Source of the DNA: Candidatus Latescibacterota bacterium
GTDB lineage: Bacteria > Krumholzibacteriota > Krumholzibacteriia > WVZY01 > JAKEHA01
Direction: 5' to 3'
Assembly (NCBI GenBank): GCA_963707635.1
Contig: OY970173.1
Coordinates: 1,312,001 to 1,376,000 of the forward strand
Length of the DNA stretch: 64,000 nt
Within the stretch, counting starts at the first letter, position 1; each line of letters opens with the position of its first letter. A program made the translations under genes and the position numbers. A model generated the notes under the pieces. The model was not told the origin of the DNA. It searched no databases and worked only from the letters and a program-made list of their open reading frames with translations. This document shows, in pieces, positions 9,631 through 16,306 of the stretch.

Positions 9631-10935
9631 ATGTCTACACTTCCGATCGTTTACATTTCCGACCTTCGCATCCATGCCGGCAAGCCCGTCGAGCTGCGGG
9701 GGTGGGTATACAACAGCCGTTCCGGCGGGAAGGTCCGCTTCCTCATCCTGCGCGACGGGACCGGCTACCTCCAGTGCGTCGCCAGCGCGGCCGACGTGAG
9801 CCCCGAGGACTTCGAGACCCTCGGGCATCTCACCCAGGAATCCAGCGTAATCGTCACCGGTGTCCCGCGCGAAGACAAGCGCGCGCCCGGCGGGATGGAG
9901 CTGACCTTGAAGAGCGTGCGGCTCATCGCGCGTGCCGACGATTTTCCCATCACGCCCAAGGAGCACTCGTCGTCGTTCCTTCTCGACCACCGGCACCTGT
10001 GGCTGCGCAGCAAGAAGCAGCACGTTGTGCTCAAGGTGCGCCATCACACCGTGAAGGCGATCCGCGACTATCTCAACAGCCACGGTTTCACCAACCTCGA
10101 CACGCCCATCTTCACGCCCAACGCGTGCGAAGGGACCAGCACCCTCTTCGAGACCGACTATTTCGGCGACAAGGCGTACTTGTCTCAAAGCGGGCAACTA
10201 TATAACGAGGCCACCGCGGCCGCGTTCGGGAAGGTGTACTGCTTCGGGCCCACGTTTCGGGCGGAGAAGTCCAAGACGCGGCGCCATCTCACCGAGTTCT
10301 GGATGGTCGAGCCCGAGGTTGCGTACATGGAGCTGCCCGAGCTGATCGAGCTGTGCGAGGACTTCTTCTGCTATGTCGTGGCGCGCGTGATGGAGACCTG
10401 CGGCGGAGAGATTCGCGAGACTCTGGAGCGAGACACGACCAAACTCGCGGCCGTGAAGAAACCGTTCCCGCGTATCCACTACAAGGACGCCGCCGCGTTC
10501 CTGCTGAAAAAGGGACTCCCGTTCGAAGTCGGCGGAGACTTCGGCGCGCCCGATGAGACCGCGCTCACCGAAGACCATGCGACTCCGGTCTTCGTCCATC
10601 ATTTCCCGACCGCCATCAAGGCGTTCTACATGGCGCCCGATCTGAAGGAGCCGGAGTATTGCCTGTCCGTCGACATGCTCGCGCCGGAGGGGTACGGGGA
10701 AGTCATCGGCGGGGGACAGCGCACCGCCGATCTCGACCTGCTGGAGAAGCGAATCAAGGAGCACAACCTCCCGCGCGCGGCGTTCGAGTGGTACCTGGAT
10801 CTTCGCAAGTACGGCTCGGTGCCGCACTCCGGCTTCGGGATGGGAGTGGAGCGAACGGTGGCATATCTGTGCGGGCTGCAGCACCTCCGCGAGGCGATTC
10901 CATTCCCGCGGATGTTGAATCGGTTGACTCCGTAG
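9631..10935 (+). CDS. asnS: Asparagine--tRNA ligase
   Basis: OB-fold ([14 protein letters not shown]), YLSQSGQLY, motif 2 [37 protein letters not shown]. Confidence 0.96.
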
Positions 10936-10942
10936 GGATGCC

Positions 10943-11398
10943 GTGACAGAGGGGAACCTGGAGAGACTTCTCTCTCGGCGCTGGCCCTACGCCGAAGCCG
11001 ACCCCGCTGCCGTGACAGAGCTGGGCCGTCGCGTGGCCGAAGTGGGGCGCCGACAGGGCCTGATTCACTATTCAGACCTCGTGAGTGGTCTCGTCCTGCG
11101 CATGCCTAATGTTGACTCTGGGTCTCCGTTCGAGCTGGGCGTGCCCGAATGGCGAGACCTCGATCGCAACATTCTCGGCGACCTACTGGGGCGGTTGTCC
11201 CTGGAGAGCTACGCCAGGGGCGGATTTCTCGCTACGGCCCTCGTCACATCGAAGGAAACGCGGGAGCCGAGCGAGGGGTTCTGGAACCTGGTCACGGAAC
11301 TGGGACTGTTGAAATCCAGCAGTCAGAACCGCCGGCTGGTATTCTGGAGCGCGCAGGTTCGTTTTGCCTATGACTGGTATGCCGGCAATTCATGGTAG
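10943..11398 (+). CDS. Hypothetical protein
   Basis: 151-aa ORF (GTG start) tightly packed between asnS and the MerB-like gene. Protein-like composition, no motif recognised. Confidence 0.65.
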   Translation: MTEGNLERLLSRRWPYAEADPAAVTELGRRVAEVGRRQGLIHYSDLVSGLVLRMPNVDSGSPFELGVPEWRDLDRNILGDLLGRLSLESYARGGFLATALVTSKETREPSEGFWNLVTELGLLKSSSQNRRLVFWSAQVRFAYDWYAGNSW

Positions 11399-11410
11399 GG
11401 CGTGGAGCCC

Positions 11411-12091
11411 ATGCCCCTCCTGATCTCTGTCAAGCTCGCCATCTACGACACCCTGGCGACGACCACCCACGCTCCAACCGTCTTTGACATCGCGCAGAAA
11501 CTCAACGCCCCGATCGAAGACGTCCAATCTGCCTTCGACGAGCTACACAAGAAACGCCTCCTCGTTCCCGAGCCTGGCGACCCCACTCGCATCCGGATGG
11601 CTCCGCCGTTCTCGGGTGTCGAGACGCCGTTTCGCGTGACCATCGGCGACAAGGTCTACTACGCCCCTTGCGCGTGGGACTCGCTGGGCATTCCGGTCGC
11701 CCTTCATGCGGATGGTGTAATCGAGACAACAGACGGGCACACGGGAAAGCCGATTACTCTCATGGTCCAAAACGGCGCGCCGGTGCCGGAGCCGTGCGTC
11801 ATCCACATCGCCGTGCCCGCCGCGCACTGGTGGGACGACATCATCTACACATGAGCGACGATGCTGCTCTTCCGGTCGGAAGAGACGGTGGGTGCGTGGT
11901 GCAACGCGCGGAGACTTCCGAAGCGGCCGTTCGTGAGCCTGGACCAGGTGTGGGTGCTGGCGCGCGAGTGGTACGAGAACCGCCTCACGGTCGACTCGCG
12001 CCGGCCGGGGCCGGACGAAATGGTCGAGATCTTGTCAAGGATCGACCTGACGGGCCCGTTCTGGGACCCGAAGTCGGATCGATGGGGATAG
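11411..12091 (+). CDS. MerB-like alkylmercury/organometallic lyase, probable selenoprotein (UGA at 11852-11854 read as Sec)
   Basis: ORFs 11402..11854 and 11861..12091 are in the same frame, separated only by TGA-GCG-ACG. N-terminal winged-helix-like region, YYAPCAWDSL (MerB Cys96/Asp99-type motif) and WWDDIIYT-[TGA]-ATMLLFRSEE at the expected second catalytic Cys. Read-through gives 226 aa, close to MerB size. Confidence 0.8.
11863..11889 (+). promoter_or_regulatory. Candidate bacterial SECIS element
   Basis: Perfect stem CTCTTCC (11867-73) / GGAAGAG (11878-84) with a GGTC loop, extendable by GCTG/CGGT with a bulged A. Loop G-T lies 21-22 nt after the UGA. Confidence 0.72.
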
Positions 12092-12156
12092 AAGTGTGTG
12101 GTAGATGACAGGTGCACTCGGATATCCTTGTCGATGCTTTGAAAGAGGAGGTTCCA

Positions 12157-12660
12157 ATGAAGCGCTATTTCGTATTGTCGATGGTTCTGATGGCTGCGTT
12201 GTCCGGTTGCGCCAAGAAGGCGGACATCGAGGCGGAACGCACCGCACTTCGGCAGGCCGATGCGGACTGGGCGAAGACGGTGGCCGAGAAGAACGCGGAC
12301 GCATTCACGGGCTACTTCACGGCAGACGGCGTCGTCATGGCTCCGAACCTGCCGGCCGTCAGCGGGACGGACGCGATTCATGCGTGGGTCTCCGCGAACA
12401 TGGCGTTGCCGGGATTCGCGGTGACGTGGGAGGCCACATCGGCGGAAGTCGCGGCATCGGGAGATATCGGCTACACGCTGGGCAACTTCACGTTCCAGAT
12501 GTCGATGCCGGACGGGTCTCCGCTCAATGATCACGGCAAGTACGCGACCATCTGGAAGAAGCAGGCCGACGGGACCTGGAAGATCGCCGCCGACATCTTC
12601 AACTCGGAGATCCCGATGACGGCGATGCCGAGTGACACGACGGCGGTCCAGGGGCAGTAG
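12157..12660 (+). CDS. SnoaL-like/DUF4440 (NTF2-like) lipoprotein
   Basis: GAGGAGG RBS, lipobox LSGC, and SGDIGYTLG...GKYATIWKKQADGTWKI motif. Confidence 0.85.
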   Translation: MKRYFVLSMVLMAALSGCAKKADIEAERTALRQADADWAKTVAEKNADAFTGYFTADGVVMAPNLPAVSGTDAIHAWVSANMALPGFAVTWEATSAEVAASGDIGYTLGNFTFQMSMPDGSPLNDHGKYATIWKKQADGTWKIAADIFNSEIPMTAMPSDTTAVQGQ

Positions 12661-12820
12661 TTTGTCCTGGCTGAAAGACCCGGCGAAATAGAAGACGACG
12701 GCGATTCTTCGCCAAACGCCGTCATGCGGCGGCGTAAGACAAGAGCTTTGGGGCTTGTGCCGCCGAGTCGCCCGGGTATACGCTTCTCACTGCGCCAGAA
12801 GTCAACGGGCGTCGGTGGCC

Positions 12821-15800
12821 ATGCTGACACAATCCCGGAGCAAGCCGCCTCCCAGGCTCCTGCGGTTGTTCCTCCTCGGCCTGGGAGCAGCGGCCATTCA
12901 AGTCGGATCCGCACCGGTTCCGGCTCTCGCCCAGGGCGCGAGCATCGGGATCTACAGCGACCAATCGGGTAACATCTGCAGTTTCTCCGGGAACAGCCCC
13001 GGGACATTCACCGCGTACATCGTCTGTCGTCCGAACGTGAACGGAGTCACGGCCGTCGAGTTTGCGGCCCCGCCGCCGTCGTGCCTCGGGGCCGTGATCG
13101 AGGAAGAGATTCTCCCGATCGGGGCGCTGGCGATTGGCTCGGTGGAGACGGGCATTTCGATCGTCCTCCCGCAATGCTCGATGCTCCCGACCACGGTGCT
13201 CAAGGTCATCTACTCGCGCACCGGCTCGACGACGCCGTGCTGCGAGTATCCGATCGTGGCCGATTTGGTGCCCGGTGTTTTGTCCACCGTGGATTGTGCG
13301 GGAGTCGAGGTATCGACTTCCGGCGTGGTGAGCCATTTCAACGCCGACGCTTCCTGCCCTTGTGCCGGCAATAGCCAGCCGTCCATGCCGGACAATCCGA
13401 TGCCGAACGACTTGGCCGTCGGGCTAAGCGTGATGTCGAGCATGAGCTGGACCGGGTCGGACATCGATGGCAACCTCGCGGAATTTGATCTCTACCTGGG
13501 GACGAGTTCCTCTCCGCCGCTCGTCGCGGCCGGCCTCACGCAGCCCGGCTACACTCCACCTTCTCCGCTCGAGCCGCTGACGCGCTATTACTGGCGCGTG
13601 GTCGCGCGCGACGCGCTCGGGCTCGAGACGTCGGGTTTCATATGGACCTTCACCACGCGGCTGGTCAACTCGCCACCGGGCTCTCCACGGCCCCTGGACC
13701 CATTGAACGGGGCGCAGGCAGTGCCGCTGGACGTCATTGTCAGGTGGATGGCTGCAGACATCGATGACGACCCGCTCGTGTTCGACCTGTATTTCGGGAC
13801 GTCGCCGACACCTCCCCTCGTTGCCACGGACTTCGCCTTGACCGAGTATTCGCCCGGCCAGCTGAGCTACGAAACCACGTATTACTGGCGCGTGGTCGCC
13901 CGCGATCCGCTGGGTCAGGAGACGTCAGGCCCGGTGTGGAGCTTTGTCACGCGACCTGTCAACTTTCCGCCGGACCCACCGGAGAACGTGTCGCCATACA
14001 GCGGGGCGAACAATCAGCCGGTGACGGTCACCCTGACGTGGTCGGCGACCGATGCGGATAACGATACGCTGGTGTTCGACGTTTATCTTGGAACGGTCGT
14101 TCCACCGCCACTCGCAGCGACCGGCGTCAACACCAAGTACTATTCCCCCGGCGTTCTCGCCTTCGGAACGAAGTACTACTGGCGGATCGTGGCGCGCGAT
14201 GGTCACGGCGGTGCTACCTCCGGCACTACCACGTCGTTCACCACGCGACCGGAGAATTATCCGCCGACGGCGCCGTCGAATCCGGTGCCCGCCAATGGAG
14301 CGACGAATCAGCTGGTGACGACCACGCTCGCGTGGCAGTCCAGCGATCCCGACGGCCACGCGATCACCTACGACGTGTACTTCGGAACGACGTCACCACC
14401 GCCGCTGATCGCGAGCAACGTCACCACGAAGACGTACGCGCCGGGGCTGCTCGCGTTTGCGACGACGTACCGCTGGAAGATCGTGGCGCGGGATGAGCTT
14501 GGCGCCACGACCTCGGGCTCGATCTGGAGCTTCAGCACGAGAGTGGCGAACTATCCGCCGAGCGCACCGTCGAGTCCTTCGCCTGCCAACAACGCGACGA
14601 ACAGGCCGGTGACGACCACGCTGGGGTGGCAGTGCAGCGACTCGGACGGCGACGCGATCACCTACGACGTGTACTTCGGCACGGCGTCACCCCCGCCGCT
14701 GGTGGCGAGCAACGTCGCGACGAAGGCGTACGCGCCGGGGCCGCTCGCGTTCGCGACGACGTACCGGTGGAAGATTGTCGCGCGGGATGCGCCTGGCGCC
14801 GAGACCTCGGGCCCGATCTGGAGCTTCACCACCAAAGCCAATTCCGCACCGACTGCGCCGTCGAACCCGAACCCGCCGAACAACAGCGCGTCGCTGCTTT
14901 CGCCGACGCTCTCATGGACGTCGACGGATGTCGACGGACAGCCGCTGACACACAGCGTCTACTTTGGCACAACCTCGGCTCCGCCGATGGTTGCATCGGG
15001 ACTCACGGCGCCCAGCTACACGCCCGGCACCCTGGAGGCCACCGTGCAGTATTTCTGGCGGGTAGTGGTTTCCGACGGCGTACTGTCGACGAGCGGCCCG
15101 ACGTGGAAGTTCACCGCCTTTCGACCGGGAGACGTCGATGCGGACGGCGTGATTACCCTCGCCGACGCCTCGTGCGCTCTAAAGCTCTTCGTCGGGACCG
15201 GCGATTGCGCCGCCGGGGGCGGTGCGGTCGCCGCCGATATCAACTGCAGTGGGTTCGTCACCCCGCGCGACGCGCGATGCATCCACAAACACGTCCTAAA
15301 CGGGTCCTGCACGTTCTGCGGAGAATCCGGAGAGGAGCCTGCCTCCGCTGCATCGACCCCGCTGGTCACTGCCGGTCCGGTGTGGGAGAGCGATGACACC
15401 CTGAATGTGAGCCTGTTCGTGGCGGGCGTTCCCTCACTGGAGTCATTCGGTTTCAATCTGATCCACGATCCTACGGCGCGGCTGGTGGGGCTCGTTCGGC
15501 GAAGTGTCACCACCGCCTTCGAGGCGATGGAGGTGGGCGTGGAGGTCGCGTGGGAACCCATCTGGATAGGTGGTTATACGCTCGGGGGCGTGCCGGCTGT
15601 TTCCACAGTCGAACTCGTTCGACTGCGCTTCGTGATCGACTCCGGTAATGGCGGCAGTGTGCTCGTCAGAGACTTCGTCGACGACCTGGAGGGCGCGAAT
15701 CCGTTGTTTGTTGTGTTGGGAGGTGGCGGGTCAGTTCCCGTGTTGTTTACGCGCTTCGACGCCGTGCTCGAGGATGGCGGCGTCGACGTGCGCTGGGAGC

Positions 15801-16306
15801 TGACGAACGACGAAGCGATGGAGAGCTTCGCTCTTTATCGCCGCGAAGGTGCCGCTCCACTCGCAGACGTGATTGCGCAGGGGCCGGTCAATACCGGCGC
15901 GGGGTCGTACCTCGATCGTTCGGCCGGGGCCGGAAAGACGTATCGCTACGAGATGCTGGTCCAAACGCAGGATGGGGACGCGTTCCGCTCACCGGTTGCC
16001 ACGGTGACGACGCCGGCGAGCTCGCTCGTGCTCGGGCAGAACCATCCCAACCCGTTCAATCCCCAGACAACGATTCCTTACGAGCTGCCGAGCACGGCGC
16101 AGGCGGTGCATGCACGGCTCGTGATCCTGGATACCGCCGGCCGGGTCGTGCGAACGCTGGTCGATGAGGACCAGGCAGGTGGTTCGCGCGAGGCGGTGTG
16201 GAACGGCCGGAACGATGCCGGCGGCACCGTCTCGAGCGGCGTCTATTTCTATGTGCTGGACGCGGGCGGGGAGCGTAGAACGCGGAAGCTCGTCCTGCTA
16301 AAGTAA
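12821..16306 (+). CDS. Large secreted protein: six FN3/Ig-like repeats, dockerin-like pair, cohesin-like domain, C-terminal FlgD-Ig (T9SS-type) sorting domain
   Basis: Signal peptide. Six ~97-aa repeats (NxPP..P..W...D.DG..YDVYFGT...YYWRVVARD..SG..WSFTT). GDVDADGVITLAD...ADINCSGFVTPRD. C-terminal QNHPNPFNPQT...SSGVYFY...KLVLLK. Confidence 0.85.
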   Translation: MLTQSRSKPPPRLLRLFLLGLGAAAIQVGSAPVPALAQGASIGIYSDQSGNICSFSGNSPGTFTAYIVCRPNVNGVTAVEFAAPPPSCLGAVIEEEILPIGALAIGSVETGISIVLPQCSMLPTTVLKVIYSRTGSTTPCCEYPIVADLVPGVLSTVDCAGVEVSTSGVVSHFNADASCPCAGNSQPSMPDNPMPNDLAVGLSVMSSMSWTGSDIDGNLAEFDLYLGTSSSPPLVAAGLTQPGYTPPSPLEPLTRYYWRVVARDALGLETSGFIWTFTTRLVNSPPGSPRPLDPLNGAQAVPLDVIVRWMAADIDDDPLVFDLYFGTSPTPPLVATDFALTEYSPGQLSYETTYYWRVVARDPLGQETSGPVWSFVTRPVNFPPDPPENVSPYSGANNQPVTVTLTWSATDADNDTLVFDVYLGTVVPPPLAATGVNTKYYSPGVLAFGTKYYWRIVARDGHGGATSGTTTSFTTRPENYPPTAPSNPVPANGATNQLVTTTLAWQSSDPDGHAITYDVYFGTTSPPPLIASNVTTKTYAPGLLAFATTYRWKIVARDELGATTSGSIWSFSTRVANYPPSAPSSPSPANNATNRPVTTTLGWQCSDSDGDAITYDVYFGTASPPPLVASNVATKAYAPGPLAFATTYRWKIVARDAPGAETSGPIWSFTTKANSAPTAPSNPNPPNNSASLLSPTLSWTSTDVDGQPLTHSVYFGTTSAPPMVASGLTAPSYTPGTLEATVQYFWRVVVSDGVLSTSGPTWKFTAFRPGDVDADGVITLADASCALKLFVGTGDCAAGGGAVAADINCSGFVTPRDARCIHKHVLNGSCTFCGESGEEPASAASTPLVTAGPVWESDDTLNVSLFVAGVPSLESFGFNLIHDPTARLVGLVRRSVTTAFEAMEVGVEVAWEPIWIGGYTLGGVPAVSTVELVRLRFVIDSGNGGSVLVRDFVDDLEGANPLFVVLGGGGSVPVLFTRFDAVLEDGGVDVRWELTNDEAMESFALYRREGAAPLADVIAQGPVNTGAGSYLDRSAGAGKTYRYEMLVQTQDGDAFRSPVATVTTPASSLVLGQNHPNPFNPQTTIPYELPSTAQAVHARLVILDTAGRVVRTLVDEDQAGGSREAVWNGRNDAGGTVSSGVYFYVLDAGGERRTRKLVLLK
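13370..15118 (+). repeat. Coding tandem repeats (6 x ~290 bp, FN3-like)
   Basis: Repeats 4 and 5 are highly similar at DNA level (e.g. gcgatcacctacgacgtgtacttcgg). Confidence 0.85.

Follow-up and report, generated by a model that had tools for sequence, protein, structure and literature searches.

The organomercurial lyase MerB (EC 4.99.1.2) depends on Cys96, Asp99 and Cys159, all three of which are essential according to the available text of PMC10114901. SaoL (Haft and Gwadz, bioRxiv 10.1101/2022.07.06.499078) is already described as carrying a selenocysteine (Sec) at the Cys159 column; in the available part of that preprint, it is reported for 45 of the 52 SAO loci that 15,511 genomes yielded, all of them from anaerobes, and the authors knew of no selenoprotein in mercury resistance. 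Reviews of 2022 and 2026 each hold, in their available parts, a single MerB-like entry with the same example accession, labelled SaoL in 2026, and no MerB-like selenoprotein other than SaoL stands in the available 2026 table. Likewise, MerB was not found in the available text of deep-Sep, BSepDB, the GOS paper or Peng 2016, and the available BSepDB text and supplement (~4 million characters of supplement) yielded no MerB or SaoL entry; BSepDB uses SaoL-type queries, and members of the family described below may be filed there under the SaoL name. Finally, the published merB inventory screens for Cys159 and leaves two questions open, namely why MerB occurs in the absence of MerA and what selective pressure acts on it (available text of PMC8261052).

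The gene described here, which databases truncate, very likely encodes one selenium-containing relative of MerB. As judged from sequence comparison, it belongs to a widespread, stand-alone family of Sec-containing MerB-like proteins (referred to as the one-Sec family) that is distinct from SaoL and represents a variant of a known Sec position. No description of this family was found in the full-text literature searched, an existing database entry being possible, and the protein passed no model in NCBIfam 20.0.

An in-frame TGA codon and its downstream hairpin

The gene is situated in the window, i.e., the whole stretch of 64,000 nucleotides that was analyzed. From the ATG at 11411, its frame meets a TGA at 11852–11854 and then stays open until the TAG at 12089–12091, the TGA thereby joining the upstream ORF to a second one in the same frame (11861–12091). 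With the TGA read as U, a protein of 226 aa results in which U148 lies in WWDDIIYT-U-ATMLLFRSEE; the product given in databases is 147 aa long and ends at the UGA. The gene has a GC content of 0.64 and a GC3 of 0.82, similar to the adjoining asnS and DUF4440 gene, and a scan for promoters and terminators found none; no RNA record was found either, which speaks neither for nor against expression.

Table 1. Features of the MerB-like gene (positions in the window).
Feature	Position	Strand	Basis or remark
Full read-through CDS, 226-aa MerB-fold protein with predicted Sec148	11411..12091	+	PF03243; structure model pLDDT 94.7
Winged-helix-like N-terminal domain, residues about 1–65	11411..11605	+	Structural alignment
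C87-A-W-D90, MerB Cys96 and Asp99 equivalents	11669..11680	+	Profile alignment
In-frame TGA, predicted Sec148, at the MerB Cys159 / SaoL Sec column	11852..11854	+	Profile alignment; TGA in 107/108 loci
SECIS-like hairpin, 7-bp stem and GGUC loop, beginning after 12 nt 3′ of the UGA	11867..11884	+
C-terminal part past the Pfam MerB match, residues 189–226	11975..12088	+	Conserved in one-Sec and double-Sec families

A TGA occupies the Sec148 column in 107 of the 108 loci that reach it (host gene included), the remaining one carrying TGT. This set comprises 21 loci from a GTDB scan, 7 from the host genome and its relatives, and 80 from metagenomes, and thus favors close relatives; L042, which duplicates L026, was removed, and the fragments L044–L046 were left out. 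Because of this recurrence, and because a 121-nt public contig (run X4, with a source sample that is possibly the same) is identical to 11770–11890 with the TGA included, a sequencing error as the origin of the TGA was ruled out.

The stem downstream of the TGA is perfect over its 7 bp, with GGTC in the loop. As in the SECIS element of E. coli fdhF, the hairpin is located just 3′ of the UGA and carries an apical GGUC, which occupies nt 20–23 after the TGA here, as opposed to nt 19–22 in fdhF. However, the predicted fold of the fdhF element is bulged, and the bulged U of SECIS matters for E. coli SelB. When all 69,478 TGA triplets in the host genome were scanned for a perfect 7-bp stem with a GGTC loop starting 8–16 nt downstream, only the one at 11852–11854 matched, and a looser pattern (a loop beginning with G) gave 50 matches.

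The folding energy of the hairpin is modest (z of –1.95, with 8 of 200 shuffles folding equally well), and the case therefore rests on conservation. Among the 107 TGA loci, the five hairpin codons (L153–E157) show a modal-codon share of 0.96–1.0, whereas at 116 other conserved columns this share has its median at 0.50 and never exceeds 0.86. Moreover, 95.3% of the stem cells pair across 73 rows, with changes on both sides (i.e., compensatory) at 4 of its 7 pairs, a level of pairing and covariation that was reached by 0 of 500 shuffles, and structures slid along the alignment pair 47–62%; the 73 rows were hand-picked for variety from 135 distinct 42-nt rows, and relatedness can inflate such counts. 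The hairpin sequence is missing from those Cys forms that were examined. Taken as alignment evidence, these patterns indicate that the hairpin is under selection as RNA.

The same alignments bear on the possibility that the TGA is a true stop, leaving either a split gene that restarts at the ATG at 11861 or a pseudogene. Such a reading, which we regard as highly improbable, would agree with the 147-aa database product and with the presence of an ATG three codons past the TGA in 106 of 107 close loci. Nevertheless, the codons between TGA and ATG are kept as protein (Thr in 97 of 107 loci, via four synonymous codons), and ATC or ATA replaces the ATG in 9 of 73 more diverse TGA rows. A split would also lose the Cys159 equivalent, and a nonsense mutation would not keep codon and hairpin together at 38–86% identity across phyla, as found here; the 21 GTDB records span eight named phyla.

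The host genome (3.2 Mb, 96% complete) carries selA, selB and selD above cut-offs, selD with an in-frame TGA of its own, and a tRNA-Sec (tca). An alternative code, in which TGA would be read as Trp or Gly, might be read from the W or G present at this column in a few database records (P0018, P0036, P0126 and P0134), which are probably code choices of gene callers. This alternative is scarcely credible, since TGA is the stop of 375 of 876 long coding-like ORFs in the host genome, and tRNA-SeC is the only one of its 46 tRNAs with a tca anticodon. Reading of the TGA at 11852–11854 as selenocysteine is thus favored as a prediction that we hold to be almost certain.

The preliminary description of this DNA had already proposed the joined frame with its U-containing motif, the GGTC hairpin 12 nt after the TGA and the placement of its GU relative to that of fdhF, all of which agree with the sequence; it had further looked to selABCD in the genome and to hairpin conservation among TGA-bearing homologues, and selA, selB, selD and the tRNA-Sec were all found, as was a conserved and covarying hairpin. 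None of the refuting outcomes it had named was encountered in the checks that were run.

A heuristic selenoprotein scan of the host genome, the list of which is incomplete as it missed SelD, also pointed to a BCP-type peroxiredoxin with TPG-U-T and a hairpin (G000:C1:717992; L163) and to an OS_HP2-family protein with PG-U-GC (G000:C1:1152806; L164) as likely selenoproteins. Formate dehydrogenase, considered as the main host selenoprotein, had no match above cut-off in the host genome.

Fold, active site and place among MerB-like proteins

The Pfam MerB profile (PF03243) matched residues 67–189 across the TGA, over all 126 profile positions and with an E-value of 1.9e-28; the score of 99.4 bits, against a gathering cut-off of 27, places the protein in the MerB superfamily. 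Its AlphaFold model, with Cys in place of Sec, most closely resembled MerB2 (5c17; Foldseek E 1.5e-11; VIA Z 19.4, rmsd 3.1 over 187) and MerB (3f2g; Foldseek E 5.7e-11; VIA Z 14.9, rmsd 4.3 over 183), at 18–22% identity to solved MerBs. The next VIA entry had a Z of 9.3 over 62 residues, and later matches covered the N-terminal winged helix only. Residues 1–63 match the winged helices of LexA and IdeR (Z 8–9), and the structural alignments with MerB and MerB2 also take in the N-terminal region, that with MerB2 running over residues 1–193. At the other end, MerB structures align only to about residue 195, and the last ~30 residues are conserved in the one-Sec family.

In a profile alignment built from 26 relatives (with chain numbering counted from the aligned chain), C87 falls on C96, D90 on D99 and U148 on C159 of R831-type MerB, the assignment that had been proposed from the CAWD motif and U148. 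C87, W89 and D90 are invariant in all 107 TGA loci. The Cys117 equivalent is Asp108, in a column with Asp in 71 and Cys in 36 of these 107 loci.

The protein thus shares with MerB (R831b; PDB 3F0O, 3F2F and 3F2G) the fold, the N-terminal winged helix, counterparts of Cys96 and Asp99, and a chalcogen as the ligand at position 159, where Sec replaces Cys. In contrast to MerB, it has no Cys160 and carries Asp at the Cys117 position, and it is set apart by an identity of ~20%, a conserved C-terminal extension and the lack of a mer operon. Its scores of 35.4 bits vs. 200 (NF033555) and 45.8 bits vs. 193 (NF009710) are below the canonical MerB cut-offs, and instead of the Cys159 plus Cys117 signature used for surveying (available text of PMC8261052), it has Sec/TGA and Asp108. 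With merA in only 3 of 62 carrier genomes and no mer gene among 102 neighboring ORFs, the protein is not a mer-operon MerB. MerB2 of Bacillus, its best structural match, is similar in having Thr-Cys at the equivalent site, but it has a Ser at position 99 and low activity (available text of PMC10114901), whereas the Asp is retained here.

With SaoL (NF040728), as described in the available sources, the protein has in common the PF03243 MerB fold, the Cys...Asp pair with Sec at the Cys159 column, database truncation at the UGA, and the absence of a mer-operon link. However, it scores 39.2 bits on the SaoL model, against a cut-off of 140 and 148–175 bits for three SaoL loci, and is 27% identical to one SaoL over 127 aa. 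SaoL also sits in a nine-gene SAO neighborhood, in contrast to the present gene beside asnS, a 151-aa ORF and a DUF4440 gene; a search for the SAO marker SaoC gave 0 matches in the host genome, and likewise 0 in control genomes. While the SaoL motif is CU, that of the one-Sec family is TU, the residue preceding the TGA being Thr in 106 of 107 loci, a feature that is weak alone since L171, which is above the SaoL cut-off, also has TU. In terms of prevalence, the one-Sec family occurs in ~6–7% of the sampled Chloroflexota and Acidobacteriota genomes, compared to the 45 SAO loci reported for SaoL in the available account of those 15,511 genomes. On the basis of these sequence differences, the protein is not SaoL.

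A tree of 55 rows, unrooted and with the one-Sec rows not resolved as one clade, contains a starred branch (100/99) that parts SaoL and all characterized MerBs from the group of the one-Sec family. Bacillus MerB1, MerB2 and MerB3 as well as MerBA fall on the SaoL/MerB side, and the other side holds the one-Sec family, its Cys relatives and a double-Sec family. An AU test disfavored joining SaoL to the group on this latter side (p 0.021), which is only suggestive because the group was chosen once the tree had been seen and long branches occur in it.

The double-Sec family became apparent in 351 genomes of Thermodesulfobacteriota (the phylum of G053), where 58 of 77 PF03243 matches hold two TGAs, and Sec in MerB-fold proteins would therefore be much commoner than SaoL alone suggests. 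Of 30 fetched loci, 15 were double-TGA, and in all 15 each of the two Cys positions is occupied by a TGA. In 14 of these, the Asp99 equivalent is Glu, and these 14 also have the second hairpin motif in common with the one-Sec family, to which the double-Sec family is related with a profile probability of 99.8. Its members (L181, L182, L184, L186–L189, L191–L193 and L196–L199, and L156 from Chloroflexota) carry the motif WF[G/A]Q-U-xxES ... U-STMNFFRSEE, with a hairpin after each TGA, and the three that were scanned passed no NCBIfam model.

Further TGA-bearing relatives were seen elsewhere in the superfamily. A separate double-TGA MerB-like protein (L194:1459-2175, – strand; IYAA-U-AID ... DSF-U-RQSVFF) is placed on a long branch in the part of the tree that contains SaoL and MerB. 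L170, L173 and L175 have further MerB-like proteins, each with a single TGA and near to sequences of the canonical MerB type (AAGSL-U-RTMVF; LRAYT-U-PLINFF), and this distribution of motifs suggests that Sec may occur at the Cys159 column in several branches. The N-terminal domain of a "merB" on a Streptomyces plasmid (L165:3605-4576) scored 68 bits on the DF-family (seleno)protein model NF049942, slightly below its cut-off of 70.

Distribution of TGA and Cys forms

In phylum-wide samples, the TGA form was present in 19 of 301 Chloroflexota genomes (the phylum of G046) and in 22 of 301 Acidobacteriota genomes (the phylum of G045). Among the 19 in Chloroflexota are one with two TGAs and three whose copies are frameshifted or partial, and seven weaker or second matches in that scan were considered only where another locus covered them. 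Closer to the host, 7 of 16 same-genus genomes gave a match, one of which is a fragment. The preliminary description had placed the possible novelty in the lineage and the stand-alone context; instead of a single lineage, there is a large multi-phylum family separate from SaoL.

Among the best 120 of 1,914 database matches, 116 end at the residue before the UGA; since the published inventory also needs Cys159, such surveys would drop the family. The 150 cluster representatives comprise 59 that end just before the column, 71 with Cys, 8 with another residue and 12 that were unassigned, and 57 of the 59 truncated ones retain the C and the D. As read from these records, the truncated and Cys representatives form the usual signature of a Sec/Cys pair, in keeping with the expectation that homologues would carry either Cys or TGA at this column. 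In 38 of the 71 Cys representatives, the Asp99 equivalent is replaced by a further Cys, and some members of the wider group may therefore lack protonolysis of the MerB type.

A subgroup of the Cys relatives (L043, L143, L218 and L168:2989-3666) has GNCAWC, with Cys for Asp99, and the protein in the named record L168 is annotated as hypothetical. In L017, L027, L153, L154 and L223/L226, the TGA and hairpin are kept in a gene that is frameshifted or cut elsewhere, by decay or assembly error.

SelA was detected in 19 of the 21 GTDB-scan genomes and in all 22 Acidobacteriota TGA carriers. For Chloroflexota, it was detected in 17 of 19 TGA carriers but in none of the 7 genomes that carry close Cys forms (Fisher p 5e-5), six of these seven belonging to one clade; relative to the background of 227 of 301 genomes in this sample, 17 of 19 is not significant (p 0.18). 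Four other genomes with Cys forms have SelA (G020, G940, G127 and G329). Three of the genomes used (G059, G322 and G732) are unpublished and contribute one row each to these SelA counts and to the merA count, and the conclusions are independent of them.

Genomic context and putative activity

The MerB-like gene is preceded by asnS and the 151-aa ORF and followed by the DUF4440 gene. A search of the flanking ORFs in the window gave no mer gene, in line with the earlier statement that merA, merR and Hg transporters are missing nearby, and a Pfam scan of the 102 nearest ORFs from 58 genome loci revealed no mer or ars gene. Furthermore, no conserved operon emerged among the 108 loci, recurring neighbors being lineage-specific and shared by at most 11 of them (shadow frames of the MerB-like gene itself were set aside in this count).

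MerA was above cut-off in 3 of 62 carrier genomes (1/26 plus 2/36) and not in the host genome; the searches scored part of the first-pass candidates in many genomes, by which misses are possible. In G058, merA is located 24 kb away on the same contig with unrelated ORFs in between, and in the other two merA carriers it is on a different contig. The missing merA argues against classical mercury resistance. The best MerA-like match in the host genome adjoins a pyruvate-dehydrogenase-E1-like ORF and was, from its sequence, taken to be a lipoamide dehydrogenase and rejected; the second match is L048.

On balance, the gene very likely encodes a stand-alone 226-aa selenoprotein with a predicted MerB fold that probably cleaves metal–carbon bonds, with Sec taking the place of the second catalytic Cys. 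In the proposed sequence of events, SelB with Sec-tRNA would bind the GGUC-loop hairpin and the UGA would, with near certainty, be read as Sec. Subsequently, the Cys87 thiolate and the Sec148 selenolate would bind an alkyl- or aryl-metal cation and Asp90 would give the proton for release of R-H, as in the MerB mechanism, two steps that we jointly deem reasonably likely. In almost all carriers, which are without MerA, the metal product would then go to cellular thiols or stay bound. Selenolates are ionized at neutral pH and bind Hg tighter than thiolates do, and this tighter binding would be an advantage where the substrate is present at trace levels. Our best single guess for the natural substrate, offered tentatively, is an organomercurial, for example methylmercury, the alternative being another organometal(loid). 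Low identity, a position in the tree opposite to that of the characterized MerBs, and the rarity of merA speak against a lyase.

A rival reading is a selenoprotein in which Cys87 and Sec148 would serve redox or thiol/selenol-transfer chemistry on a MerB scaffold, for instance in the cleavage or reduction of S–C, Se–C or As–C compounds, a reading that we find rather unlikely. It would fit the lack of a link to merA or metal transporters, the scattered single gene with unrelated neighbors, the CxxC instead of CxxD of those 38 Cys relatives, and the host's other candidate selenoproteins, i.e., SelD, the BCP-type peroxiredoxin and the OS_HP2-family protein. However, Asp90 is invariant throughout the TGA loci (107/107), as fits the proton donor of MerB, and around half of the canonical merB genomes (906 of 1795; available text of PMC8261052) are without merA, so that a missing merA is compatible with lyase chemistry.

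The N-terminal domain raises a further alternative, i.e., a soft-metal binder or sensor without turnover, in which the Cys/Asp/Sec site would trap Hg, Cu or Ag and the winged helix may bind DNA. Residues 1–65 indeed resemble winged-helix regulators, several JGI records call the truncated product a MocR-family regulator, the D99S variant of MerB binds Cu (available text of PMC10114901), and an Hg–Se product could be hard to release without MerA. Yet the alignments with MerB and MerB2 also extend over these N-terminal residues, so that the winged-helix domain would be part of the enzyme scaffold, and no common neighboring gene was found as a possible regulated target; we consider this alternative unlikely.

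Returning to the lyase, nature offers a series in which a common scaffold bears a Cys/Cys, a Cys/Sec or a Sec/Sec active site, and with it a simple assay could address the questions of MerB lacking MerA and of the selection behind MerB. A more far-reaching and doubtful proposal is that an uncatalogued Sec-containing MerB branch demethylates methylmercury without a mer operon in common soil and sediment bacteria, with selenium lifting the affinity far enough for trace concentrations; the one-Sec form would do so in Acidobacteriota, Chloroflexota, Krumholzibacteriota and others, and the sister double-Sec form in Desulfobacterota. If true, merB inventories have missed a real environmental sink for methylmercury, as the UGA stops gene callers and surveys require Cys159, and selenium supply would control this sink.

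The surroundings of the gene show some further particularities. The 151-aa ORF (10943-11398, + strand) ends 12 nt before the MerB-like start, is without Pfam or NCBIfam match, has a lower GC3 (0.72) and resembles unnamed atlas clusters (score 0.96); of 5 same-genus genomes, 3 carry a copy of 64% identity at another site, and no copy was found in the remaining 2. The region 3′ of asnS looks like a variable slot (9631-16306 in the window, and loci L037–L041). The MerB-like gene was not found in G002, which has the closest asnS, and the distance from asnS to the MerB-like gene is 0.6 kb in G001 and 4.7 kb in G012.
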